A stretch of DNA of 44,459 nucleotides from Patescibacteria group bacterium (GTDB lineage Bacteria > Patescibacteriota > UBA1384 > XYA2-FULL-43-10 > 1-14-0-10-43-13): positions 1 through 44,459 of the forward strand of contig JBAZBD010000002.1 of NCBI GenBank assembly GCA_041671645.1, read 5' to 3'. A program made the translations under genes and the position numbers. Position 1 is the stretch's first letter; every line of letters begins with the position of its first letter. A model generated the notes under the pieces. The model did no database searches. It saw only the letters and a list, made by a program, of their open reading frames with translations, and had not been told where the DNA came from. Of this stretch, positions 3,001 through 44,459 are shown piece by piece.

Positions 3001-6000
3001 TGAATTCTTCGACTGGATCCAAGACTGATTATTCAGTTGGAACTTCTCCATATTCCTTCGGCGATATGACGGGCTTTGCTCTTCAGCAGTTCGTTTTGGG
3101 TGGCACGAACTCTAGTAGTGCCTCATATACTCTGTCTTCTGGGTTAACTATGACTGACGAGCTGACTATTTCTTCGGGTATTGTGTCGGCCGGCGCCAAC
3201 ACAATATCAGCCGGAAAATTTATCCAGAGCGGAGGCTACTTTACTGCTCCGTCGACTACCATGTCTGTCTCGGGCGATTTCCAGCGTTCTGGGGGCGTTT
3301 TTGTCAGAAACCTAGGTACAGTAAGTTTAGCTGGCGTAGCCAGCTCGACCCAAGTAGTTTCCGGATCAACAACGTTCAATAATTTATCTGCCACGACAAC
3401 CTCTGCTCGGACTATCCAATTTGCTGCTGATTCGAGCCAGGCGGTATTGGGGACCTGGACGGCTACCGGCGCGGCTGCTCAACTTTTATCATTGGCTCTA
3501 AAAACTGGCGATAGCGGCGTCTGGAATATTAATCCTACTGCTTGGAGCGTCGATTATGTTAACGTTTCAAACTCAACCAACTTCGCTTCTACTCCGATCA
3601 GCCCGACTCATTATGATTCAGCGTCTCTGACCGCAAATAATACAAATTGGTTCTCACTCAGCTTGGTGGGCCATACTATTACCTCTTCTGTGGTTGGGTC
3701 CAATGGCACCATCTCACCTAGCGGCGCTACCTCGGTCGCTGATGGAAGCAACCAAACCTATACAATTACCCCTGGGACTGGTTATCACATCTCCGATATC
3801 AAAATTGATGGGATAAGTCTTACTGGAACCCTGGCTTCGACCTACACTTTTTCAAATGTTACAGCCGAACACACGATTGCGGTTACGTTCGCAGCAAATG
3901 ATGTTTGTGTCTGGGACGGTGGAGCTGATGATGAAAACTGGAGCTCGGCTTCAAACTGGTCGAACGATACGACGCCATTTGCGACTTGCGATGTTATTTT
4001 CAATAGTACCTCAAGAAAAAATTCTATAATTGATACTATCTTCAGTAGTCATATCAAATCTCTCGCAGTTAATACTGGTTATACCGGAATTATTTCTGCC
4101 AGCAACGATCTGGCCAACGACGGAGACTTTGTTTTAAGTTCCGGAACATTTTCGGCTGGCTCTAAGACAATCAATATCGCTGGTTCTTTATCGCTGGCTC
4201 CAAGCTCGACCGCTGTATTCGAAAAAGGGAGTAGCACCATAAATTTCAATCCAATCGCAACAGGCAAGACAATTACAACCAGCGGCCAGCAACTCGGTAA
4301 TTTGACTTTCAACGGAGTAGACGCAAATTTAACTGGGGTTGCGATTACCTCCAACAACAATATTGGCCTTCTTAGAAAGGGGATTATTGTTGCCGGCTGG
4401 ACGCTCCAGGACAATTTGAGTGCGGCATCAGTGGCTGTGGTTTCCGGGACTCTTGTAGACGCAGGTAAATCTGTAACTGTGGCTGGCAGTATCAATATTC
4501 CGTACAAGATTGGCCTCTTGGCTTCGACAGGTCTTTGGACGCAATCTGCCAGCGGCAATATTTCAAACGGCGATATGCGCAATACCTTTGGCAGTTTGAC
4601 GATAGCTGGCGCAGGAGTAACTACAAATATGATTGGAGCGGTAAAAGTCGGGTTAAATGAAGGATCAGCCGGAGCGCTAACCATGGGCCCTGGGACATTG
4701 AATGGCAACAACAATTCTCTCATAGAATATATGCCGAGAAATGATGGTCTTGGGCTCGACAATCTCATAGTCGGCTCGAAATTGAGCACATTTACCATGT
4801 ATCCGCTAGGCAATATACTTCAGAAAGCAATCTCTTTGCCAAATAATTTTGGGAATATTCAGATTCAGAAGAATCCCTCCACTAAATTCACTGCTACTGG
4901 CGACTTTAACTTTGGCAATAATAATTTGACGGTTAATAATGATAGTACTATCAGAAATACTGGCTATTTGGATATGGGTCAATACAATCTGACCTGTAAT
5001 AATCTTACAATCGGCTCAAATTTCGGAAGCGTAGCGAATCCTTCTTATTACCAAATTGCTGGTGGGCTCAAAATTAGCAGTGGTAGCATCAACGTCGGCG
5101 GCAATCTGGCTGCTGCTCATCCTCTAAATTTTGGCGACACCCTTGATCTTGGATCTGGAACATTAAATTTTTCTGGCTCAAGTTTCAATACCAATTATCT
5201 CAACTTTACTGCCGGCACTTCTACGGTAAATTTCACGAGTGCCACCGGCTCTACCCAGGCGATTTATAGCTCTGCCACATTCAATAATTTATCAATTGCG
5301 ACGACTTCTGCTCGCATTATCAAATTTGCTGCTGGTACAACCCAGACTGTTCTTGGTACCTGGACAGCCACTGGCGCGCCAGATCAATTGCTGACCATGG
5401 CTCTAAAAGCAGGCGATACTGGTTTGTGGAGTGTCAATCCAGCTGCTTGGAATGTCGACTATGTCAATGTCAGCAATTCAAACAATCTGGCGTCATCCAA
5501 AATAAATCCGGCTCATTATGTCGACGGTGGGGGCAACATTAACTGGTTTGACCCGGCTGTCGCGCCGATTCCTGATGAACCTGGGACTGATCTGGGCACG
5601 ATTGTTGACGATGTTATCGACACCGTTACTACAGCAATCGATGTTATCACAGATGCCATAACCAATTTCATCACAAATATCGTCGAAACTTTGGCTCAAA
5701 GTGTGATCGGACTGTTCGTCCAAAACGCGGTCGAAAATATTTCTGCAGCAATCGCCGCAACCGCTACTGCGATTAGAAATGTATTATCAAAAATTGGGTT
5801 GACACCGGAGGTTGCATCTAGTGTCGCAACTGCGGTTACCGCTGTTTCGATTGCTGCAGCAGCAATCGCCGCCGCGCCTATGGCAGCCTCAGGCTCCCTG
5901 TTCAACCTTGGAGAAATATTTCATTCTATTTGGCAGCCAATCGCAAATTTTGTTACTCGAAAACGTCGTCGTAATTGGGGCAGGGTTATAGAGGAGGGAA

Positions 6001-7129: not shown

Positions 7130-7888
7130 ATGGAAGAGAAGTTTCGAAAATTGAGAAAGTTTAACATTTTTATGGCCTGCTTACATTTCGCTCAGGCAGT
7201 TGTGATGCTGATATTGGCCACTGACATGAAAGTTTCGGTCTTTACCTCATTTCTCAAATTTGACATGGCAACAGAAAGTCTAATCCCTGATCCAAAAGTT
7301 TGGTTCAATATCCCACTGGTCGCCCTCATTGTCTCATTCCTTTTTATTTCTTCCTTGGCCCACTTAATGGTTTCTCTGCCCAAGATCAACGATTGGTACA
7401 ACAAAAACTTGGCCAAAGGCGCAAATTATGCACGTTGGATTGAGTACGCTTTTAGCTCCTCAATCATGATCTTGGTAATCAGTATGTTGGTCGGAATCTC
7501 CGACATTTCGGCCCTGATCCCAATCTTCTTCGTCAATGCGGCTATGATTCTGTTTGGTTGGATGATGGAGCTTCACAATCAGACTACTAGCAAGGTCAAT
7601 TGGGCATCATTCATCTTCGGTTGTATCGCTGGAATTGCCCCATGGCTTGTGATCGCTCTCTATCTTTGGAGCCCGGGAAGCGCTTCAAATCCTCCAACAT
7701 TTGTCTATTGGATTTTCTTTTCAATTTTCCTTTTCTTCAATGTTTTTGCTATCAATCAAGTTCTCCAGTACAAGAAAGTGGGCCGTTGGAGCGACTATTT
7801 GTATGGAGAGAGAGCGTATATTATTCTTTCGCTCGTTGCAAAATCTCTCCTCGCCTGGCAGGTTTTCGCCGGCACATTGAGACCATAA
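7130..7888 (+). CDS. Heliorhodopsin (7-TM retinal protein)
   Basis: 252 aa. The strings RWIEYAFSSSIMI, FGCIAGIAPW and GERAYIILSLVAKSLLAWQVFAGTLRP closely parallel heliorhodopsin 48C12 as I recall it (RWVEYSLSSSVMI, FGCIAGIVPW, GERAYIVLSLVAKSALAWQIFSGTL). Schiff-base Lys K238 (codon 7841-7843), counterion Glu E105, and H19/Q22/H78 are all present. A GGAGG SD sits 5 nt upstream. Confidence 0.9.
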   Translation: MEEKFRKLRKFNIFMACLHFAQAVVMLILATDMKVSVFTSFLKFDMATESLIPDPKVWFNIPLVALIVSFLFISSLAHLMVSLPKINDWYNKNLAKGANYARWIEYAFSSSIMILVISMLVGISDISALIPIFFVNAAMILFGWMMELHNQTTSKVNWASFIFGCIAGIAPWLVIALYLWSPGSASNPPTFVYWIFFSIFLFFNVFAINQVLQYKKVGRWSDYLYGERAYIILSLVAKSLLAWQVFAGTLRP

Positions 7889-7927
7889 TTATTGCTAGGT
7901 AGAGCCGATCTCTGCTATCCTTATCTT

Positions 7928-8740
7928 ATGACAATATTGCATTCAATAATTTTGGGTTCCTTACAAGGCCTGACCGAGTTCCTACCAATCTCTTCTTCTG
8001 GTCATTTAGTTTTGGTTCCTTACGTTTTCAATTGGAATTACCAAGGCAAGGCTTTTGATGTCGCCCTACATGCTGGGACTGCCTTTGCTATAGTCGTTTT
8101 TTTCTGGCGAGATTGGCTGGACATATTCAAGAAGGCATTCTCCAGAAGAGCTCGAGTCGAGGGTGAAACAATCAAAAAATACCCGGACAATATCCTGTGG
8201 CAAATTTTGGTTGCCTCAATTCCTGCGGTGATTGTCGGGCTTCTTCTGGACAAATTTGCCGCTGACTATTTAAATTCAACCCTTTTCGTTACAGCGAATC
8301 TAGCGCTGTTTGGTATTTTGCTTTGGTATGTAGACAAAAAATCAAAGTCTGATTTGACTCCACAGAAACTAACTTACAAAAAGTCTTTTCTCATCGGTTT
8401 GTCACAATCACTCGCTCTAATTCCTGGAGTTTCCAGATCGGGGATTACACTGACTGCGGCTCGATGGATGGGGATGCCACGCGCGGAAGCGGCTCGTTTT
8501 TCATTTTTGTTAGCTACTCCTACAATCGTCGGCGCTTTCTTGATGAAGATCGCTACTATCGAAAAGGGGGGGCTTGATATCACTTTCTGGCTTGGCGTTA
8601 TTGCGGCAACGGTATTTGGTCTTTTGGCTATTAAATTTCTACTCAATTATCTCAAAAACAGCGATCTCTCCATATTCATGTGGTACAGAATTATCGCCGC
8701 TCTCATAGTTTTGGGAATATATTTGGCTCGTCTGAACTAA
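7928..8740 (+). CDS. uppP: Undecaprenyl-diphosphate phosphatase
   Basis: It has the canonical N-terminus MTILHSIILGSLQGLTEFLPISSSGHL, the SRSG motif (PGVSRSGITL) and a multi-TM profile. I prefer the ATG at 7928 over the upstream TTG at 7892. Confidence 0.9.
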   Translation: MTILHSIILGSLQGLTEFLPISSSGHLVLVPYVFNWNYQGKAFDVALHAGTAFAIVVFFWRDWLDIFKKAFSRRARVEGETIKKYPDNILWQILVASIPAVIVGLLLDKFAADYLNSTLFVTANLALFGILLWYVDKKSKSDLTPQKLTYKKSFLIGLSQSLALIPGVSRSGITLTAARWMGMPRAEAARFSFLLATPTIVGAFLMKIATIEKGGLDITFWLGVIAATVFGLLAIKFLLNYLKNSDLSIFMWYRIIAALIVLGIYLARLN

Positions 8741-33775: not shown

Positions 33776-35593
33776 ATGAAGACCACCTACAACCGCTCAC
33801 TAATGGCAGTGATTATTATATTCGCCGCCCTCTATTTATTTGGCAGTTTCCTCTACTCCAAGCGTGAAGTAGTCAAGGATTCGTCGATCTCGGCTATCGC
33901 CGACCAAGTAGCTAAAGGCGAGATTTCCTCTGTCGGGGTCAAAGACAATTTGGTCACCGCTACGCTGAAAAATGGCCAGAAGGTCAAAGCTTCGAAGGAA
34001 GCTTCCGCTACTCTCAAAGATTACGGCATCACTCCAGACAAAGTCGAAATCAAAGTGAGCGATACGACTGGCTCGGTCGCTTGGCTTTCGGCTCTCTACA
34101 CCATAGTGCCGATTCTTCTAATTGGCGCATTTATTTTCTTTATGATGAGATCAGCCCAGGGCGCCAATACTAAGGCAATGAACTTTGGCAAATCTCCGGC
34201 CAAGCTTTTCACCGGCAAGCAAAAGGTTACTTTCTCTGACGTGGCAGGTGCTGACGAAGCCAAACAGGAGTTATTTGAGGTAGTAGACTTTTTGAAAAAT
34301 CCGAAGAAATACCGTGATCTTGGTGCAGAAATCCCACGCGGAGTATTGCTGGTCGGCTCTCCTGGCACAGGTAAAACCCTGATGGCCAAGGCCGTCGCTG
34401 GTGAAGCCGGTGTACCATTTTTCTCAATCTCAGCTTCAGAATTTGTCGAAATGTTTGTCGGTGTCGGTGCTTCTCGCGTCCGCGATCTTTTCCTAAAAGC
34501 CAAACGAAACGCTCCTGCCATCATATTCATCGATGAGCTAGATGCAATTGGCCGACAGCGTGGTTCTGGCCTTGGCGGTTCACATGACGAACGAGAACAA
34601 ACGTTAAATCAGATATTGGTTGAGATGGACGGTTTTGAGTCCACTGACAATGTCATCATCATCGCGGCCACCAACCGACCTGATGTCCTGGACCCTGCTC
34701 TTCTCCGCCCCGGTCGTTTCGATCGTCAGGTCTATGTCGATCTTCCAGATCGCAAGGAACGCTTTGCTATTCTAGGCGTTCATACCAAGAGCAAACCGGT
34801 TGAAACGGGCACAAATCTAGAAAAAATTGCCGCTTCGACACCTGGATTTTCTGGCGCTGATCTTCGGAATTTGGCCAACGAAGCCGCTATCCTAGCTGCT
34901 CGCAACAATCAGAAGACTATTACACAGAAGGATCTGGCTGAATCGATCGAGAAGGTAATGATGGGGCCAGAGAAGAAAACTCGTGTCCTGTCGGACAAGG
35001 AACGCCGCATTACTGCCGTCCACGAAGCTGGCCATGCCCTTGTCAGCCATCTTCTGCCAAACGCTGATCCAGTCCACAAGATCTCAATCATATCCCGCAG
35101 AATGGCATTGGGCTTCACCTGGAACATGCCGCTAGAAGAGAGACGGCTCGAAAACAGAGCTCATTTTCTTGACGAAATTGCCACTCTCATGGGCGGAAGA
35201 GTCGCCGAAGAAGAATTCTTTGGCAAGGATAGCGTCACAACTGGCGCCTCCAATGATATGAAGAAAGCGACAGAAATCGCTCGCAAGATGGTGACTGACT
35301 TCGGTATGAGCGACAAGCTTGGCCCTCAAGTTTATGGTCACCGCGACGAAATGCCATTTCTCGGCAAAGAGTACACTGAGCACCGCAACTACAGCGAAGA
35401 TATTGCCAAAACTATCGATGAGGAAGTTTCTCGACTGATCAAACAGGGCCAGGAGAGAGCCGATCAACTTGTCAAAACTCACAAGAAGATTATCGAAAAT
35501 ATTGCCGAAGGTTTGCTCAAGGAAGAGACCATCAACGAAGAAGAATTCCAGAAATATTTTCCTGAGGTCAAGACTGCGTCCAAGACAAAATAA
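33776..35593 (+). CDS. ftsH: ATP-dependent zinc metalloprotease FtsH
   Basis: Walker A is [23 protein letters not shown], Walker B is [12 protein letters not shown] is [20 protein letters not shown], and the Zn site is HEAGHAL. Confidence 0.97.
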
Positions 35594-35605
35594 CGGAGCT
35601 AATCG

Positions 35606-37183
35606 ATGAAGAGAATCGCCGCTTTCTTCTCCAAGGAGAATTCAATCCGTGGAGCCAGCATTATCCTGATTATTACTTATACTTTAAGTAACGTCCTCGG
35701 ACTGTTCCGAGACCGATTTTTGACCAAGAATATTTCGACCTCTGACCTCGACATTTATTATGCCGCTTTTCGAATCCCAGACTTCATTTTTAACGTCCTA
35801 ATCCTGGGAGCGATCACCTCCGCTTTTATCCCAATATTTTCAGATTTCTTGGGTATGAAGAAGAAAGAAGAGGGCTTCAAGGTTGCCAACTATCTGATCA
35901 ATTTGGCTATTCTGACGATGCTAATCCTGGGAGTTATCTTCTTCTTTATTATGCCTTGGGCTATCTATTTGGTAGCTGATTTTGACGCCTCTAGAATGGC
36001 AGAGACAGTCAAATATTCTCGGATGTTGATGTTGCTTCCAATTTTCTTCTCACTTTCCTACATCACTGGCGGAATGCTCAACGCGATGAAACGCTTTGCC
36101 GCCTATGGTGTAGCGCCACTTGTTTATAATGTTTCAATCATCGCTGGAGCAATCTATCTAGCGCCTCGGTTTGGTCTGATCGGCGTCGTGGCCATGGTGA
36201 TTGTTGGATCATTTTTACATTTCCTGATCCAATTTATCTCTGCCTATCAACTCGGGTATCGATACCGACCGATCATTTCCTTTACCGCTCCCCCGATCAA
36301 GCGGATTATCCGTCTCATGGTGCCCAGGACCATCAGCATGGGGTCAACTCAAGTGCTACTTCTTTTCTTTACTAGAATTGCCTCCGCCCTTGTGGCAGGT
36401 TCGGTCGCCGCTTTCAATCTGGCCAACAATATTGTGACTATGCCAGTCGCCGTTCTCGGTACTACTTTTTCGACTGCCGTCTTCCCAACCTTGGCCGCCA
36501 AGATTTCGGAGAACAAGCCGGAGGAATTTTACTTTTACCTCAATCGATCGCTTCGGGCGATCGGCTATGTCCTGATCCCATCAACTGTCATCTTTGTCTT
36601 GCTTCGCGCCCAAATCGTACGATTGATCTTGGGATCGGGCAAGTTTACATGGGAAGATACTAGGACCACTGCTTTAACTTTGGGTTTCCTCTCTATTTCG
36701 ATCTTGGCCCAAGGGCTGATCCCAATGCTGTCCAAGGCTTTCTACGCTCTCAAGAATACTCGGACCCCAATGTTCATCTCCATCGCCACTATGATCGTGA
36801 GTGTGATCTTGGCCTGGCCACTTTCGAAGAGCTACGGCCTTGCTGGTCTCGCCCTGACATTTTCAATCGGCAATTTCTTCAATGCGATTGTCTTATTCTA
36901 TTATCTTCAAAAGAGCTACAAGAAAGTGTTGGATCGAAATCTGCTCGGTTCCTATTTCAACGTCACAATAATTTCCCTGGTCATGGGTTTGACGATCTGG
37001 ACCTCTGCCCATTTCCTGGCCAATTATGTCGACATGACGCGCTTTGTCGGAGTTTTGATCCAAGCTGGAGTCTCGGCTGGGATCGGAGTCATTGTCTTTT
37101 TGGGGCTGAGCTATATTTTCAAACTTGAAGAAATGAAGTGGGCATTCACACGGAGGATAAATGGAGAGACTAAGGTCGGGTAA
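35606..37183 (+). CDS. murJ: Lipid II flippase MurJ (MviN)
   Basis: 525 aa with ~14 TM helices. The N-terminal pattern is typical: LSNVLGLFRDRFLTKNISTSDLDIYYAAFRIPDFIFNVL. Confidence 0.85.
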   Translation: MKRIAAFFSKENSIRGASIILIITYTLSNVLGLFRDRFLTKNISTSDLDIYYAAFRIPDFIFNVLILGAITSAFIPIFSDFLGMKKKEEGFKVANYLINLAILTMLILGVIFFFIMPWAIYLVADFDASRMAETVKYSRMLMLLPIFFSLSYITGGMLNAMKRFAAYGVAPLVYNVSIIAGAIYLAPRFGLIGVVAMVIVGSFLHFLIQFISAYQLGYRYRPIISFTAPPIKRIIRLMVPRTISMGSTQVLLLFFTRIASALVAGSVAAFNLANNIVTMPVAVLGTTFSTAVFPTLAAKISENKPEEFYFYLNRSLRAIGYVLIPSTVIFVLLRAQIVRLILGSGKFTWEDTRTTALTLGFLSISILAQGLIPMLSKAFYALKNTRTPMFISIATMIVSVILAWPLSKSYGLAGLALTFSIGNFFNAIVLFYYLQKSYKKVLDRNLLGSYFNVTIISLVMGLTIWTSAHFLANYVDMTRFVGVLIQAGVSAGIGVIVFLGLSYIFKLEEMKWAFTRRINGETKVG

Positions 37184-37766
37184 AATCGGCAATCAACTTA
37201 AGCCCCATGAGAGCGTCACTATCAAGGGCGTATTTGTCTTTTTGTCTTTCATATTTCTGATTTTCCTCTCCTTCATTTTCTATCTCCGTTTCTCTGGATT
37301 TTCCCCTATGGTCGAAATCTATAAATTGAAAAAACCAGTCGTAAATTTCAACTTGGCCGATTACCTGACAGGCGAAGCCAACACGAGTATTTCGAAAAAC
37401 TTTGAGATCAAGATCAACGAGGAACAGCTCAAGGAAACGATCAAACTCGGAGACAGGTTTATCGATCTCAAGAAGCCTGATATCAAAATCAAGCCAGAGG
37501 GCGTTATTATCACGGGCAAATCTAGCGGCGGATTTTTCGGTATCAATGTTGAGGTCCTAGCTATCCCTGAAGCTGACGCTGGGAAATTAAAATTCAAAAT
37601 CAAAGAAATCAAAGCGGCCGGTGTCGTCGCTCCTCCTCGGATAGCCGATCCGTTGACTAGCCAGATCAATCTCGCTCTTCGAGATGTTGCTGTTCCGGAG
37701 GGCCTAACAGTCACAGAGGTGCGCACGATGACGGGCTATATTCTTGTCGAAGGCACCAAGAAGTGA
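37161..37766 (+). CDS. Hypothetical membrane-anchored protein
   Basis: 201 aa with one TM (VFVFLSFIFLIFLSFIFYL) and a Lys-rich beta-type ectodomain. It overlaps the murJ end by 23 nt. Confidence 0.65.
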   Translation: MERLRSGKIGNQLKPHESVTIKGVFVFLSFIFLIFLSFIFYLRFSGFSPMVEIYKLKKPVVNFNLADYLTGEANTSISKNFEIKINEEQLKETIKLGDRFIDLKKPDIKIKPEGVIITGKSSGGFFGINVEVLAIPEADAGKLKFKIKEIKAAGVVAPPRIADPLTSQINLALRDVAVPEGLTVTEVRTMTGYILVEGTKK

Positions 37767-37770
37767 ACCT

Positions 37771-38385
37771 ATGAAGGCATTTTTATTCTCTGATCTACAT
37801 GTTAATTACAAGCAACTCAGCAATCTCTTGAAGTTTCTGGCGGGAAACAAAGAGATTGATTTTGTTATCTGCGCTGGTGACACCGTTAATATGGGGGAAC
37901 CAGTTGGGTTTATGGAGACGTTTATAGATGTTATCGACAAAATAGGCAAACCCTTCTTCTGGGTGCCGGGCAACAACGATTTTGGTCGTGCATATTACAA
38001 ATTGTCAGCCAAATACCCCTCGCTTGAGGGGAGAGTGGCCGAGGAGGGAGGCAGGAAATTTACTGGAGTTGGCGGTTCCCCTGCTTCTTGGGCTGGCCAG
38101 TATGCTGGCGAGAAATTAATCGACAAGCAACTAATCGGCGGCTCGATATTTGTCTCTCATGTTCCACCGCCAGGAGTACACAATTACCGTCACGAAGATT
38201 GTAACTCCCCCACCGCCAAAAAGCTTTCAGACTCCCCCCTCGTCCACATTTGCGGTCACGTCCATCATCAATGGGGTTGCGCTTATCTTGGTAGCACCAA
38301 GATTATCAAGCTCGCCGCCTTCGAATACGGCCAATATGCTATACTGGATTTAGAAAATTTGGCGGTAAAATTTAAACATTTCTAG
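37771..38385 (+). CDS. Metallophosphoesterase (calcineurin-like)
   Basis: Motifs: FSDLHVN, CAGDTVN, PGNNDF, VSHVPP, CGHVHH. The ATG at 37771 lies just after the preceding stop. Confidence 0.85.
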   Translation: MKAFLFSDLHVNYKQLSNLLKFLAGNKEIDFVICAGDTVNMGEPVGFMETFIDVIDKIGKPFFWVPGNNDFGRAYYKLSAKYPSLEGRVAEEGGRKFTGVGGSPASWAGQYAGEKLIDKQLIGGSIFVSHVPPPGVHNYRHEDCNSPTAKKLSDSPLVHICGHVHHQWGCAYLGSTKIIKLAAFEYGQYAILDLENLAVKFKHF

Positions 38386-38392
38386 GAGACTT

Positions 38393-38836
38393 ATGAAAAT
38401 TGTAATTTGCGCAAGCGTAGTTTTCTCAAAAGAGATAATCGGTATTACCGAGAAACTCGAAAAAGAAGGCCACACAGTCGATATTCCTTTTGTTACCAAA
38501 CTGATCAGAGACAAAAAGATTTCTTTGGATCAATATATTGCCGACAAAGACAAAGAAGGCGATATCAAATATCGCGAGCAATATCGTGACCAAGTTGATA
38601 TGATCAAGAGGTATTATGGGCTGATAAACGATTGCGATGCAATATTAGTCTTGAACTACGACAAAAAGGATATTCCAAACTATATTGGGGGCAGTGTTCT
38701 GATGGAGATGGGCTTCGCCTATGTTTTGGACAAGAAGATTTTTTTGTTAAATCCAATCCCAGAAATGTCCTATAGCGATGAATTAAAAGATTGCAAACCA
38801 ATTGTTATCAGCGGCGAATTATCGAAGATAAAATAA
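38393..38836 (+). CDS. Small Rossmann-like protein, possibly nucleoside 2-deoxyribosyltransferase-like
   Basis: The pattern MKIVICASVVF...CDAILVLNYDK...YIGGSVLMEMGFAYVLDKKIFLLNP resembles Nuc_deoxyribosyltransferase-like folds. The functional call is weak. Confidence 0.4.
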   Translation: MKIVICASVVFSKEIIGITEKLEKEGHTVDIPFVTKLIRDKKISLDQYIADKDKEGDIKYREQYRDQVDMIKRYYGLINDCDAILVLNYDKKDIPNYIGGSVLMEMGFAYVLDKKIFLLNPIPEMSYSDELKDCKPIVISGELSKIK

Positions 38837-38854
38837 TCTTACCCAAGGAGTGCA

Positions 38855-39682
38855 ATGAAACTAGGCGCGCATATATCATCTGCAAAACCATTTTCTGACT
38901 CGATTGTTCGAGCCAAGGAGATTGGTTGCGAATGCATGCAAATCTTTGCCAACCCACCTCAGAGGTGGAATCCGGTGCCAATCCCCGAAGACGAAATCAA
39001 GCGGTATTTAGAATTAAATCGTGAAGCCAAGATCTCGCCAGTAATTATCCATAGTATTTATTTGGTCAATTTTGCTTCAGAAAATCCATTTTATTACGAG
39101 CAGTCGATCAAGAGTCTGATTGATGATATGAAAAAATCATACTCTCTGGGTGCGCTTGGAGCGAACACTCATCTGGGCTCGACCAAAGGGGGAGATTTCA
39201 AAACTTTACTTCCCAAAATCACTGCCGCCATCAAACAAATCTTGGCCGAAACTCCAGAAGAATCCCATTTCATTATTGAAAACGCGGCTGGGGCTGGAAA
39301 TATTATTGGCGATACAATCGATGAAATTGCCGAGATCAAAGATTCAGTCAATTCAACCAGAGTCAAAGTCTTGTTCGATACCGCCCATGCCTTTGAATCC
39401 GGATACAATCTGAAAGACGAAAAAGAAATTGATAATTTTATTGAAAATGTCGATAAACATATTGGCATTGAAAGTCTGGTTGGCTTTCACTTAAATGATT
39501 CAAAGACTGCATTTAATTCGAAGCGTGACCGTCATGCCGACATCGGCGAAGGCGAGATTGGGCTTGAGACATTCAAATATTTGTTAAACCACCCAAAACT
39601 AGAGGACAAATTTGGCATCCTGGAAACCCCACAAGACACAATGCCCTGGGCGGACCAGTTGAAACTTCTTAAGTCTCTCTAA
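38855..39682 (+). CDS. nfo: Deoxyribonuclease IV (endonuclease IV, AP endonuclease family 2)
   Basis: MKLGAHIS, THLGS, ENAAG, FDTAHAF and HLNDSK...KRDRHADIGEGEIG supply the three-metal-site ligands of Nfo. Confidence 0.92.
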   Translation: MKLGAHISSAKPFSDSIVRAKEIGCECMQIFANPPQRWNPVPIPEDEIKRYLELNREAKISPVIIHSIYLVNFASENPFYYEQSIKSLIDDMKKSYSLGALGANTHLGSTKGGDFKTLLPKITAAIKQILAETPEESHFIIENAAGAGNIIGDTIDEIAEIKDSVNSTRVKVLFDTAHAFESGYNLKDEKEIDNFIENVDKHIGIESLVGFHLNDSKTAFNSKRDRHADIGEGEIGLETFKYLLNHPKLEDKFGILETPQDTMPWADQLKLLKSL

Positions 39683-39723
39683 AAGATAGCTTTTTGAGCT
39701 CAATTCTGTTATGATTTTTTGGC

Positions 39724-41517
39724 ATGGAAAACAAAATTATCCAATCAAATATCCGCAACTTCTGCATCATCGCCCATGTTGATCATGGTAAGTCGACTCT
39801 GGCAGACCGAATGCTTGAGATGACTGGCACGATCCAGAAGAGGGACATGAAGGAGCAGCTCCTGGACCAGATGGACCTAGAGCGTGAACGCGGAATCACG
39901 ATCAAGCTCGCCCCAGTTCGTATGAACTGGAAGGGTTTTGAGTTGAATTTGATTGACACTCCAGGCCACGTTGATTTTTCCTACGAAGTTTCTCGCTCAT
40001 TGGCCGCTGTCGAGGGCGCAGTCCTGCTTGTTGACGCTAGCCAGGGAGTCGAAGCTCAGACATTATCTGTACTATATTCTGCAATTGAAAATAATCTGAC
40101 CATTATCCCGGTACTGAACAAAATTGATCTTCCTGCCGCAAGGCCTGAGGAGGTATCAGAAGAAATCATCAAGATTTTGGGATGCAAAAAAGAAGATATC
40201 CTGATCGCTTCTGGCAAGACCGGCCAGGGCGTCGAAGCAATTCTCGACAAAGTAGCCGAATTGGTCCCGGCCCCAAGCGGAGAAGACAGCAAACCTCTCA
40301 AGGCCCTAATCTTTGATTCTATTTATGACTCCTATCGAGGAGTAGTCTCCTATCTTCGCGTTATGGATGGCCAGATCAAGAAAGGCGACAAATTTTTCCT
40401 GATGGAGACCAAAAGTGAGGGAGAGGTGATAGAAGCCGGCTGTTTCAAGCCGAAATTTGTCCCCCGCTCTCCCCTCTTCACTGGAGAAATTGGCTACATT
40501 GTGACCGGTTTTCGCACCGTGGCAGAGGCCAAGATTGGCGATACTATTACACTGAAAAATAATCCAACTGATTCTCCCCTACCTGGTTATCGCGAAGTTC
40601 TCCCGTCTGTATTTGCCTCAGTTTATTGCACTGAGGGAGACGATTATCCAGATCTAAAAGAGGCAATTGAGAAGCTAAAATTGAACGATGCTTCGCTTTC
40701 TTACGAGCCCGAGCGATCGGATGCGTTGGGCTTTGGTTTCCGTTGTGGCTTCCTGGGCCTTTTGCACCTTGATATCGTCAGAGAGAGGCTTGAGCGGGAG
40801 TACAACCTATCCCTTGTGATCTCCAGCCCATCGGTGCGCTACAAAATTATTCTAAACACTGGAGAAGAGCTAAATATCGAAAAACCAGGGGACTTGCCCG
40901 AGCCGGGACAATTTAGAGAGGTGAAGGAGCCATGGGTTAGCCTCGAAGTTTTCACCCCCAAGGACTATGTTGGCGGTTGCATGGACGTAATCCAGAAGAA
41001 AAGAGCGAACTTTATAAATCTCGAATATTTAGACGAGAGCCGAGCTATAGTCCGCTACGAAGTGCCACTGGCTGAAGTGATCATCGACCTTTATGATCAG
41101 CTGATGAGCGTCTCCAAAGGTTATGCTTCTATGAACTATGAAATGATCGAATACCGAGCTTCAGAACTTGAAAAACTCGAGATCATGATCAACTTAGAAA
41201 AAGTCGATGCCCTCTCCTTCATCACACACAAATCAAAATCATACGCTGAGGGTCGCCGAATCGTTGAACGCCTGAAGGAACTGATTCCAAGACAGAATTT
41301 CGAGATCAAGATCCAAGCCGCTATCGGGGCCAAAATAATCGCCTCCGAACGACTATCCCCATTCCGCAAAGATGTTACTGTCGGTCTCTACGGCGGTGAC
41401 GTCACTCGCAAGAATAAGCTTCTGGACAAACAGAAAAAGGGTAAGAAGAAACTCAAATCTATCGGCCGAGTCGAAGTGCCGTCAGACGTCTTTATTAAGG
41501 TGTTGAGAAGCGAGTAA
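39724..41517 (+). CDS. lepA: Elongation factor 4 (LepA)
   Basis: G1 is IRNFCIIAHVDHGKSTLADR. DTPGHVDF and NKID motifs are present. The LepA-specific C-terminal domain ends ...KKLKSIGRVEVPSDVFIKVLRSE. Confidence 0.97.
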   Translation: MENKIIQSNIRNFCIIAHVDHGKSTLADRMLEMTGTIQKRDMKEQLLDQMDLERERGITIKLAPVRMNWKGFELNLIDTPGHVDFSYEVSRSLAAVEGAVLLVDASQGVEAQTLSVLYSAIENNLTIIPVLNKIDLPAARPEEVSEEIIKILGCKKEDILIASGKTGQGVEAILDKVAELVPAPSGEDSKPLKALIFDSIYDSYRGVVSYLRVMDGQIKKGDKFFLMETKSEGEVIEAGCFKPKFVPRSPLFTGEIGYIVTGFRTVAEAKIGDTITLKNNPTDSPLPGYREVLPSVFASVYCTEGDDYPDLKEAIEKLKLNDASLSYEPERSDALGFGFRCGFLGLLHLDIVRERLEREYNLSLVISSPSVRYKIILNTGEELNIEKPGDLPEPGQFREVKEPWVSLEVFTPKDYVGGCMDVIQKKRANFINLEYLDESRAIVRYEVPLAEVIIDLYDQLMSVSKGYASMNYEMIEYRASELEKLEIMINLEKVDALSFITHKSKSYAEGRRIVERLKELIPRQNFEIKIQAAIGAKIIASERLSPFRKDVTVGLYGGDVTRKNKLLDKQKKGKKKLKSIGRVEVPSDVFIKVLRSE

Positions 41518-41533
41518 GTACAATCCTGCAGTT

Positions 41534-43129
41534 TTACTTCGTTTGATACTTTTTATCCTCGACCTCTTCGTGACTTTTCAGGCTAGACTTCAATCCGTTG
41601 AAGACTGGGGTGAGCATCAAATGAGTCGCGGCAATCATAAGGGGAGTTTTCTCTCCGGGGATAAAACACAATTGACGTTCGAGTTCGTCCGAATATTTGC
41701 TCATGTCATCATTATCCTGGGCTTCATGCTTAAAATGTTCAGTGTCGAAGCCGATAGCGACCAGACGAAGTTGGTCAGTGTTCTCGACCTGAAACGCGTG
41801 CTGAAGGCCATCAGCAGCCAGATATCCTTGGCTACTAACCACCCGTTTCAGATATTTAGAAGCGAAGTTTTCTAGCAAGCTTGATTTAATCAGAGAGTAT
41901 TGTTCAAAAGTGAGCTCTTTCTCTTTCTTTTTGCCGAACCAGCGTTTCAATTTGGCTCCGAAAGTTTCTTCGGGGGCAGAGAATGCGACCATTTCATTTA
42001 CCGCAGGATCGGTAAGCGTGTCCTTGGCTTCTGCCCTTATTTTTTCAAACTCTGGCCCAAATTGCTCTTTATTCGTTATAATTTGCTGTTGCAGAATGAA
42101 TTTCGCTGTTTCTCCATCCAGAAGATCTCCAGCATGTTCATACACAACAAACTGGAAACCATCAGGAAAGCTGACAGAGCAGATTGGGCGCTCCCAGCGT
42201 AGCCCTAAGTGGTCGTGGTGCGTTTTACTGCAAGCGCTAACCAGATCTTTGGAAATCTCATATTCTTGCTCCGCTGACATTGCGCCAGCGGATGCTTTTA
42301 AGTCGTGACGGCCGGTTCTTTTCTCTTTCAATATATATTTTTTTCCACCCGCTTCGAGAAGAAAGGTCCTGTTCCTGTAAGATGTTGGCGTTCGTTTTTC
42401 CCAAACTCGAGGGTCGAATAACTCGCTAGGAACACGACCTCCGTCAGCTGTATTGGCTAAGATTTTAATTCCGCTAGGCAGGATAAACTCGTCATCTCCT
42501 TCGGGGATTTTATCCTTGTTCTCTAAAAGTTCTGCTTCTAGGGCGAGTAATTTGAGATCACGGGCAAATTTGTAATGGCTAATTGCGGATGTTGCCTCCG
42601 GTCCTGTAATCTTATCATGGTAAAAGCCATGTTTGATCTTATGCCGAACATTGTTGATTCGGTTCTCTTCCTCCTCCGGGGAGGTGGTCTCTTCTTGGCT
42701 GATCGTTTCCATGAGATCATCTGTGCCTGAACCGTAAAATTGGTCGCCTATCCTATGCTCTGGTACGGAGGGGAGATCAATGAATTTCTTGTTCTCGTTA
42801 TATCTATCTGTAATCCTTGCCGTTCTTTGGCTCTCTATAACCAATTTCCCCAAGAGTTCTCTAGGAAGATCTTGAGAGAGTGGCTTGTCGGCATATTCAA
42901 TCAAAATATGACGGACATTTGAGTTGTTTGAGGCTTCTCTGTGAATAATCTCCAAAATCATATGCCAGTTTCGCTCTAGCTTGTCAGCGGTAATATTTGG
43001 TAAATCTTGTTTTTTGATTACAGGTTCGGGCGCCTCTTCTGGCTGGGGATTGCCCAAAACTTTCGCCTCCTCGCCCTCCGGCAGGATGGCCTCTCCAATG
43101 CTATTATGATCTATGAATTCTTTTGACAT
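41534..43129 (-). CDS. Orphan hypothetical protein (531 aa), the sole cargo of the insertion bracketed by lepA 3'-end copies
   Basis: It is a long uninterrupted ORF. The N-terminal half is acidic. In the C-terminal half the motif order loosely recalls a kinase-like fold (KKYILKEKR ... EQEYEISKDL ... FVVYEHAGDLL ... LVAIGFDTEHF). There is no obvious SD. Confidence 0.6.
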   Translation of the reverse strand: MSKEFIDHNSIGEAILPEGEEAKVLGNPQPEEAPEPVIKKQDLPNITADKLERNWHMILEIIHREASNNSNVRHILIEYADKPLSQDLPRELLGKLVIESQRTARITDRYNENKKFIDLPSVPEHRIGDQFYGSGTDDLMETISQEETTSPEEEENRINNVRHKIKHGFYHDKITGPEATSAISHYKFARDLKLLALEAELLENKDKIPEGDDEFILPSGIKILANTADGGRVPSELFDPRVWEKRTPTSYRNRTFLLEAGGKKYILKEKRTGRHDLKASAGAMSAEQEYEISKDLVSACSKTHHDHLGLRWERPICSVSFPDGFQFVVYEHAGDLLDGETAKFILQQQIITNKEQFGPEFEKIRAEAKDTLTDPAVNEMVAFSAPEETFGAKLKRWFGKKKEKELTFEQYSLIKSSLLENFASKYLKRVVSSQGYLAADGLQHAFQVENTDQLRLVAIGFDTEHFKHEAQDNDDMSKYSDELERQLCFIPGEKTPLMIAATHLMLTPVFNGLKSSLKSHEEVEDKKYQTK

Positions 43130-43162
43130 ATTGCTACTAGTTTACCATAGTGAAACTTCGTC

Positions 43163-43243
43163 AAAAAGGCCAAGAAAAAATTGAAATCTATCGGCCGAGT
43201 CGAAGTGTCCTCCGATGTCTTCATCAAAGTCTTCCGAAGCGAA
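43163..43243 (+). pseudogene. Displaced second copy of the lepA 3' end (last ~27 codons)
   Basis: It translates in frame as KKAKKKLKSIGRVEVSSDVFIKVFRSE, against lepA QKKGKKKLKSIGRVEVPSDVFIKVLRSE. The 24 nt AAATCTATCGGCCGAGTCGAAGTG are identical at 41455-41478 and 43184-43207. An in-frame TGA at 43151-43153 precedes it. Confidence 0.8.
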
Positions 43244-43306
43244 TGGATTGATTTAATTATTGTTGGATGCAATAATAATTTCAAATAGTAATTTACTCGA
43301 GGGGAC

Positions 43307-44459
43307 ATGAACAAAAAAACTCTGATAAGGTTGCTATGGATCGGTAGTCTAATTGCTGTAGCGGCCCTGGTCTATTTTTTGGTGCCAAGATTCAAGGCCG
43401 ACGTTTCGATGATGGCAATAAATGAGAGCAAAGCTTCTTTCATGACAGCTGCGGGATTTGACAAGATAGACGATGGCAAGCTAGTGATGTTATCTGGTAT
43501 AGATAATCCAACAAATCTTGGCGACAACAAAATTTCAGGTATAAATGGTAACGAAATAACTATCGGATCAGGCGGGACCACTATCTTCCCATCGCCCAAG
43601 AATATGGTCACCTATATCGACAAAAAATTGGCCGTTCGGCTAGTCGATACAAACAACAACCAAGCAAATGAAGCACAGAAGATATCCTCAAGCGTTTCGA
43701 GCCTTGCCGAAAATGGCGAAGATGTCCGAGTCATCATCAAGCTAAAAGAGGATAAGACTAGCTATGCTTCAACAAACTCAGTAGCAGAGAACAAAACTGC
43801 CATTGATCAGACCAAAACTACAGCAACACAGATAGACAGTCTGATCGGAGGAGACGGCGATGTTACAAAAAATCTCTCTATCGTTAACAGCGTCGCCGCG
43901 ACCGTAAACCAAAAGGCTTTAGAAAAAATCCAGGCAGATAGTCGAGTAGAAAGCGTTATCGAGGATGCAAAGATTAGCTCCTCGCTAGATACATCAGTCG
44001 GGCAAATTCAGGCTGACAAGACTTGGGGTGTGGTCACAGACGGCACACAAATCACAGGCAAGGGCATGCGTATCGCCATCATCGATACTGGCGTTGACTA
44101 TTCTCATGCTGATCTGGGCGGTTGCCTTGGCGCAAACTGTAAAGTCATCGGTGGCTACGACTTTGTAAGTAATGACAACGACCCAATGGATGACCAGGGT
44201 CACGGCACACATGTGGCAGCAACCGCTGCCGGCAAGGGTCTCCTGAACGGTGTCGCTCCCGACGCAAGCATCATCGCCTACAAAGTTCTTGATCAAAATG
44301 GCAGTGGTTATAGTTCAGCCGTGATACAAGCTATCGAAAGATCAGCAGACCCAAATGGTGATGGGGATACCTCTGATCATGTCGATGTCGCTTCGATGAG
44401 TCTTGGTGGGCCTGGAGGTGCCACTGACCCTTCGAGCCTAGCTGTCGACAAAGTCAGCG
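43307..44459 (+). CDS. Subtilisin-like (S8) serine peptidase precursor, 3'-partial. It runs off the window and is absent from the ORF track.
   Basis: A GAGGGG SD precedes the ATG at 43307. I read no in-frame stop to the window end. It has a signal anchor (LLWIGSLIAVAALVYFLV) and a propeptide-like region. The catalytic Asp is IAIIDTGVDYSH and the catalytic His is DDQGHGTHVAATAAG. The Ser motif lies beyond the window. Confidence 0.85.
   Translation, partial: MNKKTLIRLLWIGSLIAVAALVYFLVPRFKADVSMMAINESKASFMTAAGFDKIDDGKLVMLSGIDNPTNLGDNKISGINGNEITIGSGGTTIFPSPKNMVTYIDKKLAVRLVDTNNNQANEAQKISSSVSSLAENGEDVRVIIKLKEDKTSYASTNSVAENKTAIDQTKTTATQIDSLIGGDGDVTKNLSIVNSVAATVNQKALEKIQADSRVESVIEDAKISSSLDTSVGQIQADKTWGVVTDGTQITGKGMRIAIIDTGVDYSHADLGGCLGANCKVIGGYDFVSNDNDPMDDQGHGTHVAATAAGKGLLNGVAPDASIIAYKVLDQNGSGYSSAVIQAIERSADPNGDGDTSDHVDVASMSLGGPGGATDPSSLAVDKVS

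Follow-up and report, generated by a model that had tools for sequence, protein, structure and literature searches.

A lineage-specific insert that carries a single gene, ORF531, and no recombinase gene interrupts the region downstream of lepA in an uncultured member of the Patescibacteria, and it is bounded by two copies of the lepA 3′ end, copy A inside lepA and copy B beyond ORF531. The duplication has sharp boundaries, and its two copies are of distinct origin. We put at about even chances that the arrangement arose when incoming DNA with a lepA-derived site recombined once and reciprocally (Campbell-type exchange) with the native end of lepA, inside a 24-nt core that is identical in both copies. 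The stretch of DNA analysed, 44,459 nucleotides long, is referred to below as the window.

The lepA-end repeat

The layout of the locus is given in Table 1. The resident lepA is full length, with its stop codon and conserved C-terminus kept, and matches the Pfam models GTP_EFTU (1e-57), EFG_C (8e-21) and LepA_C (4e-44, over residues 489-595). The insert comprises 1645 nt of unique sequence between the copies, and its spacers of 16 and 33 nt leave no room for another gene. There is no terminator-like site in the 16-nt spacer. Promoter-like sites, which are consensus matches only and show no enrichment over shuffled sequences, are present on the minus strand at 43284-43256, a candidate for ORF531 that would read through the antisense of copy B, and on the plus strand at 43248-43276, a candidate for the S8 protease gene, which adjoins the displaced lepA end.

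Table 1. Features of the lepA locus, in coordinates of the window
Feature	Position	Strand	Basis
lepA (elongation factor 4), complete, 597 aa	39724..41517	+	Pfam; C-terminus matches clade consensus
Copy A, functional lepA 3′ end, codons K571-E597; TAA at 41515-41517	41434..41514	+	
24-nt identical core, first copy; proposed crossover segment	41455..41478	+	
Spacer, 16 nt, between convergent lepA and ORF531 stop codons	41518..41533		
ORF531, sole gene between copies A and B	41534..43129	-	Divergent family member
Spacer, 33 nt, from ORF531 start codon to copy B; holds TGA at 43151	43130..43162		
Copy B, displaced lepA 3′ fragment, pseudogene stub	43163..43243	+	
24-nt identical core, second copy	43184..43207	+	
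AT-rich intergenic region with divergent promoter-like sites	43244..43306		
Subtilisin-like (S8) protease gene, cut by contig end	43307..44459	+	Pfam Peptidase_S8, 1.6e-23

As can be seen, the last 27 sense codons of lepA recur in the same orientation downstream of the gene. A repeat search of the window retrieved one two-copy family of 80 nt (41434-41513 and 43163-43242, 81% identity, spacing 1729), and, tandem repeats inside two genes aside, copies A and B are the sole dispersed repeat of 30 nt or more. By direct count the copies differ at 16 of 81 positions (80.2% identity), or at 18 of 84 when the stop codon is included. The chance of at least 65 matches in 81 is ~2e-22 per offset, so that ~4e-13 such matches are expected in the window and a chance origin of the repeat is excluded. 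Local alignment of extended flanks showed that the homology, which runs from codon K571 to the last sense codon, starts sharply at the boundary 43162/43163 and stops at 43242-43243, with nothing aligning past either repeat end. Sharp ends of this kind fit the ends of two orthologous genes, each with unrelated DNA downstream.

The differences between the copies fall on codon positions 1, 2 and 3 in the proportion 3/1/12. This excess at third positions (p = 8e-4 versus a uniform distribution) indicates that the copies diverged mostly as parts of functional lepA genes. The core, AAATCTATCGGCCGAGTCGAAGTG, departs from the pattern: third positions differ in 12 of 27 codons overall, in 12 of 19 outside the core and in none of the 8 inside it (p = 0.003 before correction for the post-hoc choice of the core). 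With 16 mismatches in all, the improbability of an identical stretch of at least 24 nt is no more than moderate (permutation p = 0.01-0.03), and the perfect core could be due to chance or to later gene conversion. In L171, the closest relative, the lepA end departs from the core at 4 of its 24 positions; core identity is therefore not forced by coding constraint.

Over the 81 nt, identity is 0.80 between A and B, 0.83 between A and L171 and 0.81 between B and L171, and the derived KKL and RSE residues are common to all three. Since A and B are about as divergent from each other as from L171 and share these residues with it, the second allele comes from a roughly genus-level distance. These comparisons support the view that copies A and B are two different lepA alleles and not the product of a fresh duplication. 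Copy B encodes KKAKKKLKSIGRVEVSSDVFIKVFRSE and has no start codon, and the in-frame TGA in the 33-nt spacer closes the lepA frame upstream of it. It has G->A, P->S and L->F replacements at residues that are identical in all 21 relatives' lepA ends compared, and its stop codon has become TGG where relatives have TAA, TAG or TGA.

The arms on the two sides of the core were compared separately with L171. In the left arm, copy A has 1 mismatch to L171 and copy B has 4; in the right arm, copy B has 7 and copy A has 9. The Leu codon CTC is common to the left arm of A and L171, while the left arm of B has TTG; conversely, ATC and a CGN Arg codon are common to the right arm of B and L171. This switch of affinity at the core is a non-significant trend (Fisher p ~0.3).

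The description of the repeat and its core given by an initial sequence-only reading of this DNA is thus upheld, including its mismatch count over 84 nt, its mostly synonymous third-position differences and its peptide strings. Its proposal that incoming DNA brought its own version of the lepA end likewise agrees with the presence of two alleles, B being as far from A as another species' lepA end is.

The insert, its gene and related loci

The insert contains no recombinase, transposase, relaxase or transfer gene, and no inverted repeats, terminal or otherwise significant, were found in or around it. No recombinase or integrase was detected among the 26 window ORFs scanned, nor was an integrase met in the relatives whose genes downstream of lepA were examined, among them four close ones in which five genes adjoining lepA were scanned; none is on record among the other genes called on the L171-L173 loci. 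Viral contigs contained no matches to the core or to the lepA end.

ORF531 had been taken for an orphan. It is in fact a divergent member (at most 29% identity) of a family with at least 238 clusters, consisting of proteins of roughly 500 aa that have no Pfam model. The protein databases searched contain no homologue above 30% identity, Pfam and PHROG gave no match, PADLOC gave a non-significant match only, and a profile search of the PDB found nothing. The AlphaFold model, a confident one (pLDDT 83.8), was compared with known structures by Foldseek; the leading matches are all kinase-like but weak (E ~1e-2, query-normalised TM 0.1-0.23), and the top 50 PDB matches are mostly kinases or phosphotransferases (YabT, LicA, FN3K, APH, WaaP). 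In 45 family members K268, D440, D462 and E464 are invariant or nearly so; read as motifs, they would presumably be the beta-3 Lys (K268), the catalytic-loop Asp (D440) and the metal-binding Asp/Glu (D462/E464). A protein-kinase-like fold is therefore probable for the modelled protein. No nuclease family was detected in ORF531 by Pfam, and none was consistent among the 45 relatives. Codon usage of ORF531 is host-like. Its homologues elsewhere lie in ordinary chromosomal, non-mobile contexts and are absent from viral contigs; one locus of the family, L166, includes a Competence-domain gene (PF03772).

Neither the insert nor a second copy of the lepA end was found in ~165 related lepA loci, among them those of relatives whose LepA is 98%, 91% and 87% identical. 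The insert is lineage-specific. The slot downstream of lepA varies in gene content in this clade: homology between the window and L171 ends at the lepA stop codon, no homologue of the S8 protease gene adjoins lepA in the ~165 related loci, and no ORF531 homologue does so among the sampled relatives. A clean empty site, in which lepA is followed by the S8 protease gene, was not found, relatives carrying other genes downstream. Among assembled contigs there was neither a circular form nor a donor that joins lepA to an ORF531 homologue.

Of the expectations raised by the sequence-only reading, the lack of an integrase, a transposase and terminal inverted repeats holds, and an arrangement shared by relatives, the outcome it had named as fatal, was not seen. 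An empty site in related lepA loci and other lepA-adjacent occurrences of the 531-aa protein, by which it had hoped to be confirmed, did not come to light, and neither the gene nor its family looks mobile.

Origin of the insert

According to the exchange model, a molecule of ~1.73 kb, presumably circular, would have brought in ORF531 together with an 81-nt stretch from the 3′ end of another functional lepA, that of another, roughly congeneric, Patescibacterium. Exchange would have taken place inside the core, the sole long stretch of identity. The product would be a working hybrid lepA, native up to the core and with its last 13 codons and stop codon from the incoming DNA. Copy A would accordingly consist of a native part (41434-41454) and an incoming part (41479-41514), and copy B of an incoming part (43163-43183) and the original native end (43208-43243). 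Beyond ORF531, the stub would join the left arm of the incoming DNA to the core and to the native end that was displaced, its disabling changes having been acquired later. We infer the circular intermediate, the crossover in the core and the hybrid make-up of both copies from the same-orientation repeats that bound a discrete insert, the core itself, the divergence of the alleles and the contrast between an intact copy A and a damaged copy B. The latter contrast fits the island-like rebuilding of the gene end proposed in the sequence-only reading; the core as the crossover point is plausible, on a permutation p value of ~0.01-0.03 and an affinity trend that is not significant.

Several observations count against the exchange model. 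Recombinase, relaxase and inverted repeats are lacking, the affinity switch does not reach significance, ORF531 homologues reside in ordinary chromosomal contexts, and an empty site or donor was not found. The insert is so compact that, had a larger element decayed, its reduction to one gene and nothing more would be coincidental, and a 24-nt identity within 81 nt at 80% homology is a very poor substrate for RecA. Only 1.2 kb of the contig lies to the right of copy B, so that a larger element may extend there. As to the catalyst, a site-specific recombinase, either supplied in trans or lost afterwards, and host RecA acting on the 24-nt identity appear nearly equally probable; we lean slightly to RecA because the cargo resembles an ordinary chromosomal gene with host-like codon usage. 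A recombinase that acted in trans or was lost would make the insert a non-autonomous element similar to CIMEs, which keep attL and attR and have lost their integrase (PMC5704250).

The locus could instead result from linear import by homology-facilitated illegitimate recombination, which we regard as unlikely. On this view ORF531 would have directly followed lepA in a related species, whose transforming DNA would have been anchored by homology at some point inside lepA; the far end of that DNA, 33 nt upstream of ORF531, would have been fused illegitimately to the recipient lepA at K571. Copy A would be wholly donor and copy B entirely native, with chance or later gene conversion behind the 24-nt identity. 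Events of this type are documented in naturally transformable bacteria (PMC6382021), and the Competence-domain gene of L166 shows that such genes occur in genomes bearing the ORF531 family. Linear import accounts for the genus-level divergence of A and B with its synonymous bias, for the host-like codon usage of ORF531, for the missing recombinase and for the sharp left edge at 43163 where copy B begins. The perfect core (p = 0.01-0.03) finds no explanation in it, however, and the left arm of B, with its 4 mismatches, is less L171-like than that of A with 1; if B were wholly native the reverse would be expected, although the numbers are small. Moreover, no sampled relative has an ORF531 homologue beside lepA, and in a sliding-window comparison the nearest relative is constant along the whole of lepA.

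It is less probable still, and in our estimate quite improbable, that ORF531 is an older neighbour of lepA and that copy B marks the left edge of a separate foreign segment, continuing to the right from the S8 protease gene on, or a rearrangement breakpoint. All relatives lack the S8 protease gene, too, downstream of lepA, ORF531 has its best promoter-like site to the right of copy B, the right side beyond 44459 is out of view, and tandem accretion at an att site containing a gene end is known (PMC5704250). Yet the landing of a same-orientation foreign lepA piece with a 24-nt identity 1.7 kb downstream of lepA would be a coincidence unless guided by homology or an att site, and such guidance leads back to the exchange model. 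ORF531 is, in addition, missing from the closest relatives and has no homologue of more than 30% identity in the databases searched.

Duplication of the lepA end in situ, for example by replication slippage or by an unequal exchange as ORF531 went in, with neutral decay of the non-functional copy afterwards, would require no foreign lepA and would agree with the derived KKL and RSE residues in both copies. We consider it very improbable: 12 of the 16 differences are at third positions versus ~46% expected with one decaying copy (p = 0.02), the synonymous divergence of A and B equals that to L171, which is another species and also has KKL and RSE, and copy B is still in frame with only four disabling changes. 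Finally, the data are metagenomic and a 24-nt identity can mislead small-k assemblers, but a chimera assembled from two strains or species through the 24-mer they share, a form of the artefact against which the first reading had cautioned, is the least credible origin, since it predicts lepA-left, core and other-right with nothing between rather than a complete lepA, a whole gene and a truncated copy whose left arm abuts unrelated DNA, and since an independent Logan assembly (SRR18595301; L084, 8829 nt) is identical to window positions 34610-43438, across both junctions.

Known systems and the place of this locus

Prophages of the icd and lepA type, which integrate at the 3′ end of a gene, are tens of kilobases long and encode their own integrase. 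In Salmonella enterica lepA is a prophage attachment target, and at icd the 3′ end is duplicated with the length of the ORF unchanged (PMC3603311). Both cases serve as precedents for the exchange model, as does a Fibrella genome in which a perfect 54-nt lepA-end repeat encloses a two-gene insert that has no integrase. The insert resembles prophages and islands at such gene ends (icd in E. coli, lepA in S. enterica; PMC3603311, PMC5502288) in its direct 3′-end repeat at both junctions and in that the element-borne end keeps the target ORF intact, with the displaced end at the far junction. It differs in its size of 1.7 kb, its one non-phage gene, the lack of a recombinase, its Patescibacterium host and an identity block that spans just 24 nt between diverged arms. 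Judged as an integrase-encoding integrative element (prophage, ICE, IME or island), it has att-like repeats and a reconstituted target and lacks the recombinase gene. Like a CIME, it retains att-like repeats without integration or transfer genes; a cognate integrase-bearing, lepA-specific element was not found in the ~165 related loci, the 26 window ORFs or viral contigs, there is no tandem partner, and the content of almost exactly one gene is unlike a decay remnant.

RecA strand exchange is permitted by ~26 bp of identity, with a predicted minimal segment of 25-35 bp (PMC6382021), and the 24-nt core comes near the former value. Homology-facilitated illegitimate recombination and RecA-dependent transformation share with our locus the placing of foreign DNA beside a homologous anchor, here lepA, by no enzyme of an element. 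The classical outcome of the illegitimate route is replacement or deletion with a joint of 3-10 bp microhomology, whereas here the anchor is reciprocally duplicated.

Mobile ORFs of fungal mitochondria (for example in Allomyces atp6) are homing endonucleases that bring a replacement C-terminus for the gene they invade. They are similar in combining a single-ORF insert with a foreign 3′ end and in leaving the native end as a downstream relic; ORF531, in contrast, has no LAGLIDADG, GIY-YIG, HNH or PD-(D/E)XK signature, looks kinase-like and lies on the opposite strand. Integron gene cassettes, too, have one ORF, minimal spacers and one recombination site, with the enzyme encoded elsewhere, but the present insert has no attC-type palindrome, its site is a piece of a protein-coding gene, and the scan of window ORFs revealed neither an integron integrase nor attI. 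One may nevertheless ask whether the insert is a live, minimal, recombinase-less cassette, in which a cargo gene and an 81-nt mimic of the lepA 3′ end as a recombination site move as a circle between Patescibacteria and rebuild the end of an essential gene each time, by means of a recombinase encoded elsewhere or of host RecA at a short identity. We think this quite improbable; if true, the Fibrella insert, a two-gene DUF6932 module within its lepA-end repeat, would provide a second, independent example of a lepA-end cassette.

As an integration scar the locus is of a well-known type, from which it stands out only by its small size and its missing recombinase gene, and the insert at the lepA end adds one modest case to an established class. 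Patescibacteria (CPR) have tiny genomes in which integrative elements are rarely documented, and their gene flow is poorly understood; here one acquisition has left a clean, datable scar. The locus shows that DNA from a roughly genus-level distance entered a universal gene at its end, that the gene was rebuilt and that no enzyme of an element stayed behind. It also identifies the stretch that follows lepA as a variable slot in the clade and provides two explicit junction sequences, those of the empty site and of the circle. If the design does not recur, the locus is one more integration scar of a well-known class; if it does, it would point to a light-weight route of single-gene transfer between streamlined genomes.

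Duplication of the lepA 3′ end around a single gene

The final 27 sense codons of lepA (41434-41514, copy A) recur at 43163-43243 (copy B), on the far side of a single gene, ORF531. The repeat search of the window returned the pair as 81% identical over 80 nt, and a direct count found 16 of 81 nt mismatched (18 of 84 when the stop codon is included) around a perfect 24-nt core at 41455-41478 and 43184-43207; the chance expectation for such a match in the window is ~4e-13. In gapped local alignments with 400-nt flanks, the homology spanned codon K571 to the last sense codon and did not extend on either side. Copy B has no start codon, an in-frame TGA at 43151 interrupts its frame on the upstream side, and TGG stands in place of the lepA stop.

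Features of the lepA insert and of the insert at the lepA end of Fibrella forsythiae
Feature	Location	Position	Strand	Remarks
lepA	window	39724-41517	+	complete, 597 aa; GTP_EFTU, EFG_C and LepA_C domains
ORF531	window	41534-43129	opposite to lepA	531 aa; ends 16 nt past the lepA stop
copy B	window	43163-43243	+	81 nt; begins 33 nt beyond the ORF531 start codon
DUF6932 protein	Fibrella 681-bp insert	7787-8251		Pfam E 2.6e-29
71-aa ORF	Fibrella 681-bp insert	8254-8469		

The Logan assembly of SRR18595301 contains an 8829-nt contig (L084) that is identical to window positions 34610-43438 and covers both junctions. A chimeric assembly join at the shared 24-mer cannot yield a complete lepA, a whole gene and a truncated second copy. 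Since the independent assembly agrees and a chimeric join could not give this arrangement, misassembly of the locus is unlikely, and the duplication around an insert noticed in the sequence-only reading is real. That reading had also seen no recognisable integrase or transposase between the copies, and none was found among the 26 window ORFs scanned.

The window is an ordinary chromosomal stretch with genes for FtsH, NrdD, MurJ, heliorhodopsin, BacA, L,D-transpeptidase and others. The heliorhodopsin gene (7130-7888, + strand) is a full-length match to PF18761 (E 1.5e-102) and adjoins bacA. A 2221-aa ORF (90-6755) contains tandem coding repeats at 438-1376 and 2296-3026 (213 nt in four copies and ~120-123 nt in six copies) and presumably encodes a repeat-rich surface protein.

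ORF531 and its family

ORF531 had no Pfam or PHROG match, and a PADLOC scan returned only DrmD with a non-significant score (E 0.027 over 46 residues), which was ignored. Word-indexed searches recovered only two relatives (28-29% identity) with ORF531 itself and only 2 proteins with a 45-sequence family profile. An exhaustive profile search covering 1.84 billion cluster representatives retrieved 238 proteins at E ≤0.001, with 178 at ≤1e-30; most family members are 450-550 aa long. Thus, ORF531, initially taken for an orphan, is a divergent member of a real family. No homologue above ~30% identity was present in the databases searched, including NCBI-sourced proteins, the source that also holds the LepA of the closest relative.

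A sequence-profile search of the PDB found nothing, and the first structure prediction, made with 3 sequences, was too poor for use (pLDDT 48.8). A confident AlphaFold model from 45 family members reached a pLDDT of 83.8 and a pTM of 0.82. When compared with PDB and BFVD by Foldseek, it matched mostly protein-kinase-like enzymes, with weak scores (E ~1e-2); the matches include YabT, choline kinase LicA, fructosamine-3-kinase, aminoglycoside phosphotransferases and WaaP. Residues K268 (in YILKEK), D440, and D462 and E464 (in GxDxE) are invariant or nearly so across 45 family members and, by our reading of the motifs, would correspond to the kinase β3 lysine, the catalytic aspartate and the metal-binding residues. 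ORF531 is probably an atypical kinase-like protein, and we propose nothing firmer. Pfam revealed no informative fusions in the longer family members (P0116, 1862 aa, and others).

Genes of the family are found between ybeY and ftsA-ftsZ (seven contigs, seen in the four shown), between an OPT transporter and a Mur ligase, and between rpsO and a tRNA-gene-like start (judged by eye). No recombinase appears among the recorded Pfam matches of called genes on those contigs. A search for duplicated neighbour-gene ends yielded only AT-rich low-complexity repeats in contigs L001-L003, and in L166-L169 neighbouring called genes leave no gap that could hold a duplicated fragment; the Mur ligases that flank the family member in L165, considered as a duplicated end, are merely 25%-identical paralogues. 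No member of the family was found in viral contigs of IMG/VR. ORF531 has a GC content of 0.449 and a codon usage RMSD of 0.092, among the lowest in the window, and is indistinguishable from the host by composition and codon usage. Because of its family's ordinary contexts and absence from viral contigs, and its own host-like GC and codon usage, ORF531 does not look like a mobility gene.

In one family member, P0002 (3271-4842 of the very AT-rich contig L001), an in-frame TGA falls at Trp55, a position invariant in the family, which implies that TGA is read as a sense codon in that organism (code 4-like).

The best promoter-like site for ORF531, a consensus match only, lies to the right of copy B (43256-43284, - strand). 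The mRNA from this putative promoter would open with the antisense of the lepA-end fragment; the antisense of copy B is 80% complementary to the lepA mRNA 3′ end, 24 nt of it perfectly. lepA and ORF531 are convergent; their stop codons are only 16 nt apart, and no terminator-like site lies there.

The region downstream of lepA in related genomes

The closest lepA loci are all from Patescibacteria, labelled Berkelbacteria, Kazan, Saccharibacteria or "Patescibacteria group". Collection scans gave relatives only down to ~80% LepA identity, and the useful close relatives came from a protein search: L171 (GCA_964526355.1), whose LepA is 98% identical to that of the window but whose DNA is only 84% identical, L172 (LepA 91% identical) and L173 (87%). 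The upstream order of a murJ-like gene, metallophosphatase gene, nfo and lepA is kept in relatives. Downstream, a GreA-like gene is preceded by a terminator hairpin in L171, by a 323-aa gene in L172 and by an EamA gene in L173, while other relatives have various genes followed by a recurring block of holin_4_2, a 170-aa gene and dnaJ.

DNA homology between the window and L171 ends exactly at the lepA stop codon, and the downstream genes of L171 were not found elsewhere in the window. Among ~165 lepA loci, none has an ORF531 homologue or an S8 protease gene (the partial gene to the right of copy B) at lepA, and none except an unrelated Fibrella genome has a second lepA end. It thus follows that the insert is lineage-specific and that what lies after lepA varies within this clade. 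The sequence-only reading had proposed looking for empty sites in related genomes; the insert is absent from the lepA loci of the relatives, but in none of them does the S8 protease gene directly follow lepA, as it would in an exact empty site.

A 147-aa gene (38393-38836, + strand) with a weak nucleoside 2-deoxyribosyltransferase match is flanked by the metallophosphatase gene and nfo. Its GC content of 36.5% is the lowest of the window, its codon usage is deviant, and L171 lacks it at this position. Within 3 kb of lepA it adds a second small difference in gene content.

Two related Patescibacteria contigs carry an in-frame insertion of ~170 aa in the GTPase domain of lepA, between "VRMNW" and "LNLIDTPGH" (L091 4039-4548 and L094 3707-4174). 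In L091 (P0182, 771 aa) it matches the PD-(D/E)XK nuclease family PDDEXK_3 (PF13366, E 1.3e-32); in L094 its translation shows a reading frame without stop codons. The insertion may be a mobile domain, intein-like or of another type. The lepA of L173 (3166-4959) is called as two ORFs of 96 and 454 aa with a 138-nt gap, which may reflect a frameshift, an assembly error or an interruption near the same GTPase-domain region.

Origin of the second lepA end

The 16 differences between the copies are distributed over codon positions 1/2/3 as 3/1/12, a third-position bias with p = 8e-4 against an even spread and p = 0.02 against a model of one copy being selected and the other decaying freely. Ten codons are affected synonymously and three by replacement, in addition to the stop. 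Over the 81 nt, identity is 0.80 between A and B, 0.83 between A and L171 and 0.81 between B and L171; more distant relatives are at 0.72-0.80 to either copy. KKL and RSE residues are common to A, B and L171 alone, the other relatives having KKM and mostly RNE. For most of its history, therefore, copy B was the end of a working lepA, in a lineage about as distant from the host as another species within the same genus-level group. A sliding-window comparison along lepA, from which L004 was left out for a frameshift, showed no change of nearest relative.

Copy A keeps the conserved LepA C-terminus. Copy B has G to A, P to S and L to F replacements at residues identical in 21/21 relatives' lepA ends compared, and its stop loss is explicable by a single transition from TAG or TGA. 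These changes look like decay after displacement, which suggests that the insertion event is not very recent.

Given 16 mismatches, a run of at least 24 identities has p = 0.03, or 0.01 when the third-position bias is respected; third positions differ at 0/8 sites in the core vs 12/19 outside. Core identity is not forced by coding constraint, since at 4 of its 24 positions L171 has a base found in neither copy. What these data appear to support best is a crossover within the core. If the exchange there was reciprocal, the native end would be the left arm of A with the right arm of B, and the incoming end the left arm of B with the right arm of A. The predicted empty site would then read AAAAAGGGTAAGAAGAAACTC + AAATCTATCGGCCGAGTCGAAGTG + TCCTCCGATGTCTTCATCAAAGTC (A-left, core, B-right), and the predicted circle or donor site AAAAAGGCCAAGAAAAAATTG + core (AAATCTATCGGCCGAGTCGAAGTG) + CCGTCAGACGTCTTTATTAAGGTG (B-left, core, A-right). 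Compared with L171, A-left has 1 mismatch and B-left 4, and B-right has 7 (two of them decay changes) and A-right 9; the Leu codon CTC is common to A-left and L171, and ATC and a CGN Arg codon to B-right and L171. No character conflicts with a switch of affinity at the core, which is a trend in numbers too small for significance (Fisher p ~0.3). Neither the core nor the LepA C-terminus had a match in viral contigs.

Two diverged direct lepA ends, one compact gene between them and no recombinase need to be explained jointly. We favour a model in which a 1729-bp circle (81 nt derived from lepA, stop codon, 16-nt spacer, ORF531 and 33-nt spacer) underwent one reciprocal exchange, through its 81-nt segment, with the lepA end of the chromosome; this topology accounts for every base. 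The outline of the att-like scenario first suggested by the sequence is kept, with a site-specific recombinase as one candidate agent. RecA strand exchange at the only stretch of identity would give the same product. For RecA, ~26 bp permits strand exchange and the predicted minimal segment is 25-35 bp (PMC6382021); the 24-nt core is close to both. The incoming DNA could be a lepA end plus a convergent neighbour from a related chromosome; such a fragment is a slightly better candidate than a dedicated element, because the cargo looks chromosomal and both incoming arms diverge in the manner of coding sequence. On the same grounds, the choice of catalyst tips narrowly, from near balance, towards RecA. 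That the 1729-bp unit is a live, recombinase-less, single-gene cassette mimicking a lepA end seems improbable.

The main rival to the single exchange is homology-facilitated illegitimate import of linear DNA, in which all of copy A would come from the donor and all of copy B would be native; only the core and the left-arm affinity would then lack an explanation. It is less likely that copy B is the edge of another island to the right, as the end of the contig at 44459 would allow. In-situ duplication of the lepA end is disfavoured by the codon-position test (p = 0.02) and the genus-level divergence of the copies.

The arrangement is a scar of a known kind, left when DNA integrates at the 3′ end of a conserved gene and brings a substitute for that end. 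The favoured model has good precedent: at icd the 3′ end is duplicated while the ORF keeps its length, and in Salmonella lepA serves as a prophage site (PMC3603311; PMC5502288). Unlike an autonomous integrative element, the lepA insert lacks the defining recombinase. It has the structure of a CIME, an att-flanked element without an integrase (PMC5704250), but not the context, no cognate element having been found. With no nuclease in the insert it is not a homing-endonuclease mobile ORF, and with no attC and no integrase it is not an integron cassette. Less usual here are the Patescibacteria host and the minimal insert, which comprises essentially one gene and its site.

The Fibrella forsythiae contig (L063, NZ_JAFMYW010000008.1) contains a perfect 54-nt direct repeat of the lepA end (7733-7786 and 8468-8521) around a 681-bp insert with no integrase, and a native-looking lepA terminator hairpin follows the second copy. 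It is an independent, younger-looking case in another phylum. Two cases in ~165 lepA loci are not a pattern; they hint that the end of lepA may repeatedly receive small inserts without an integrase.
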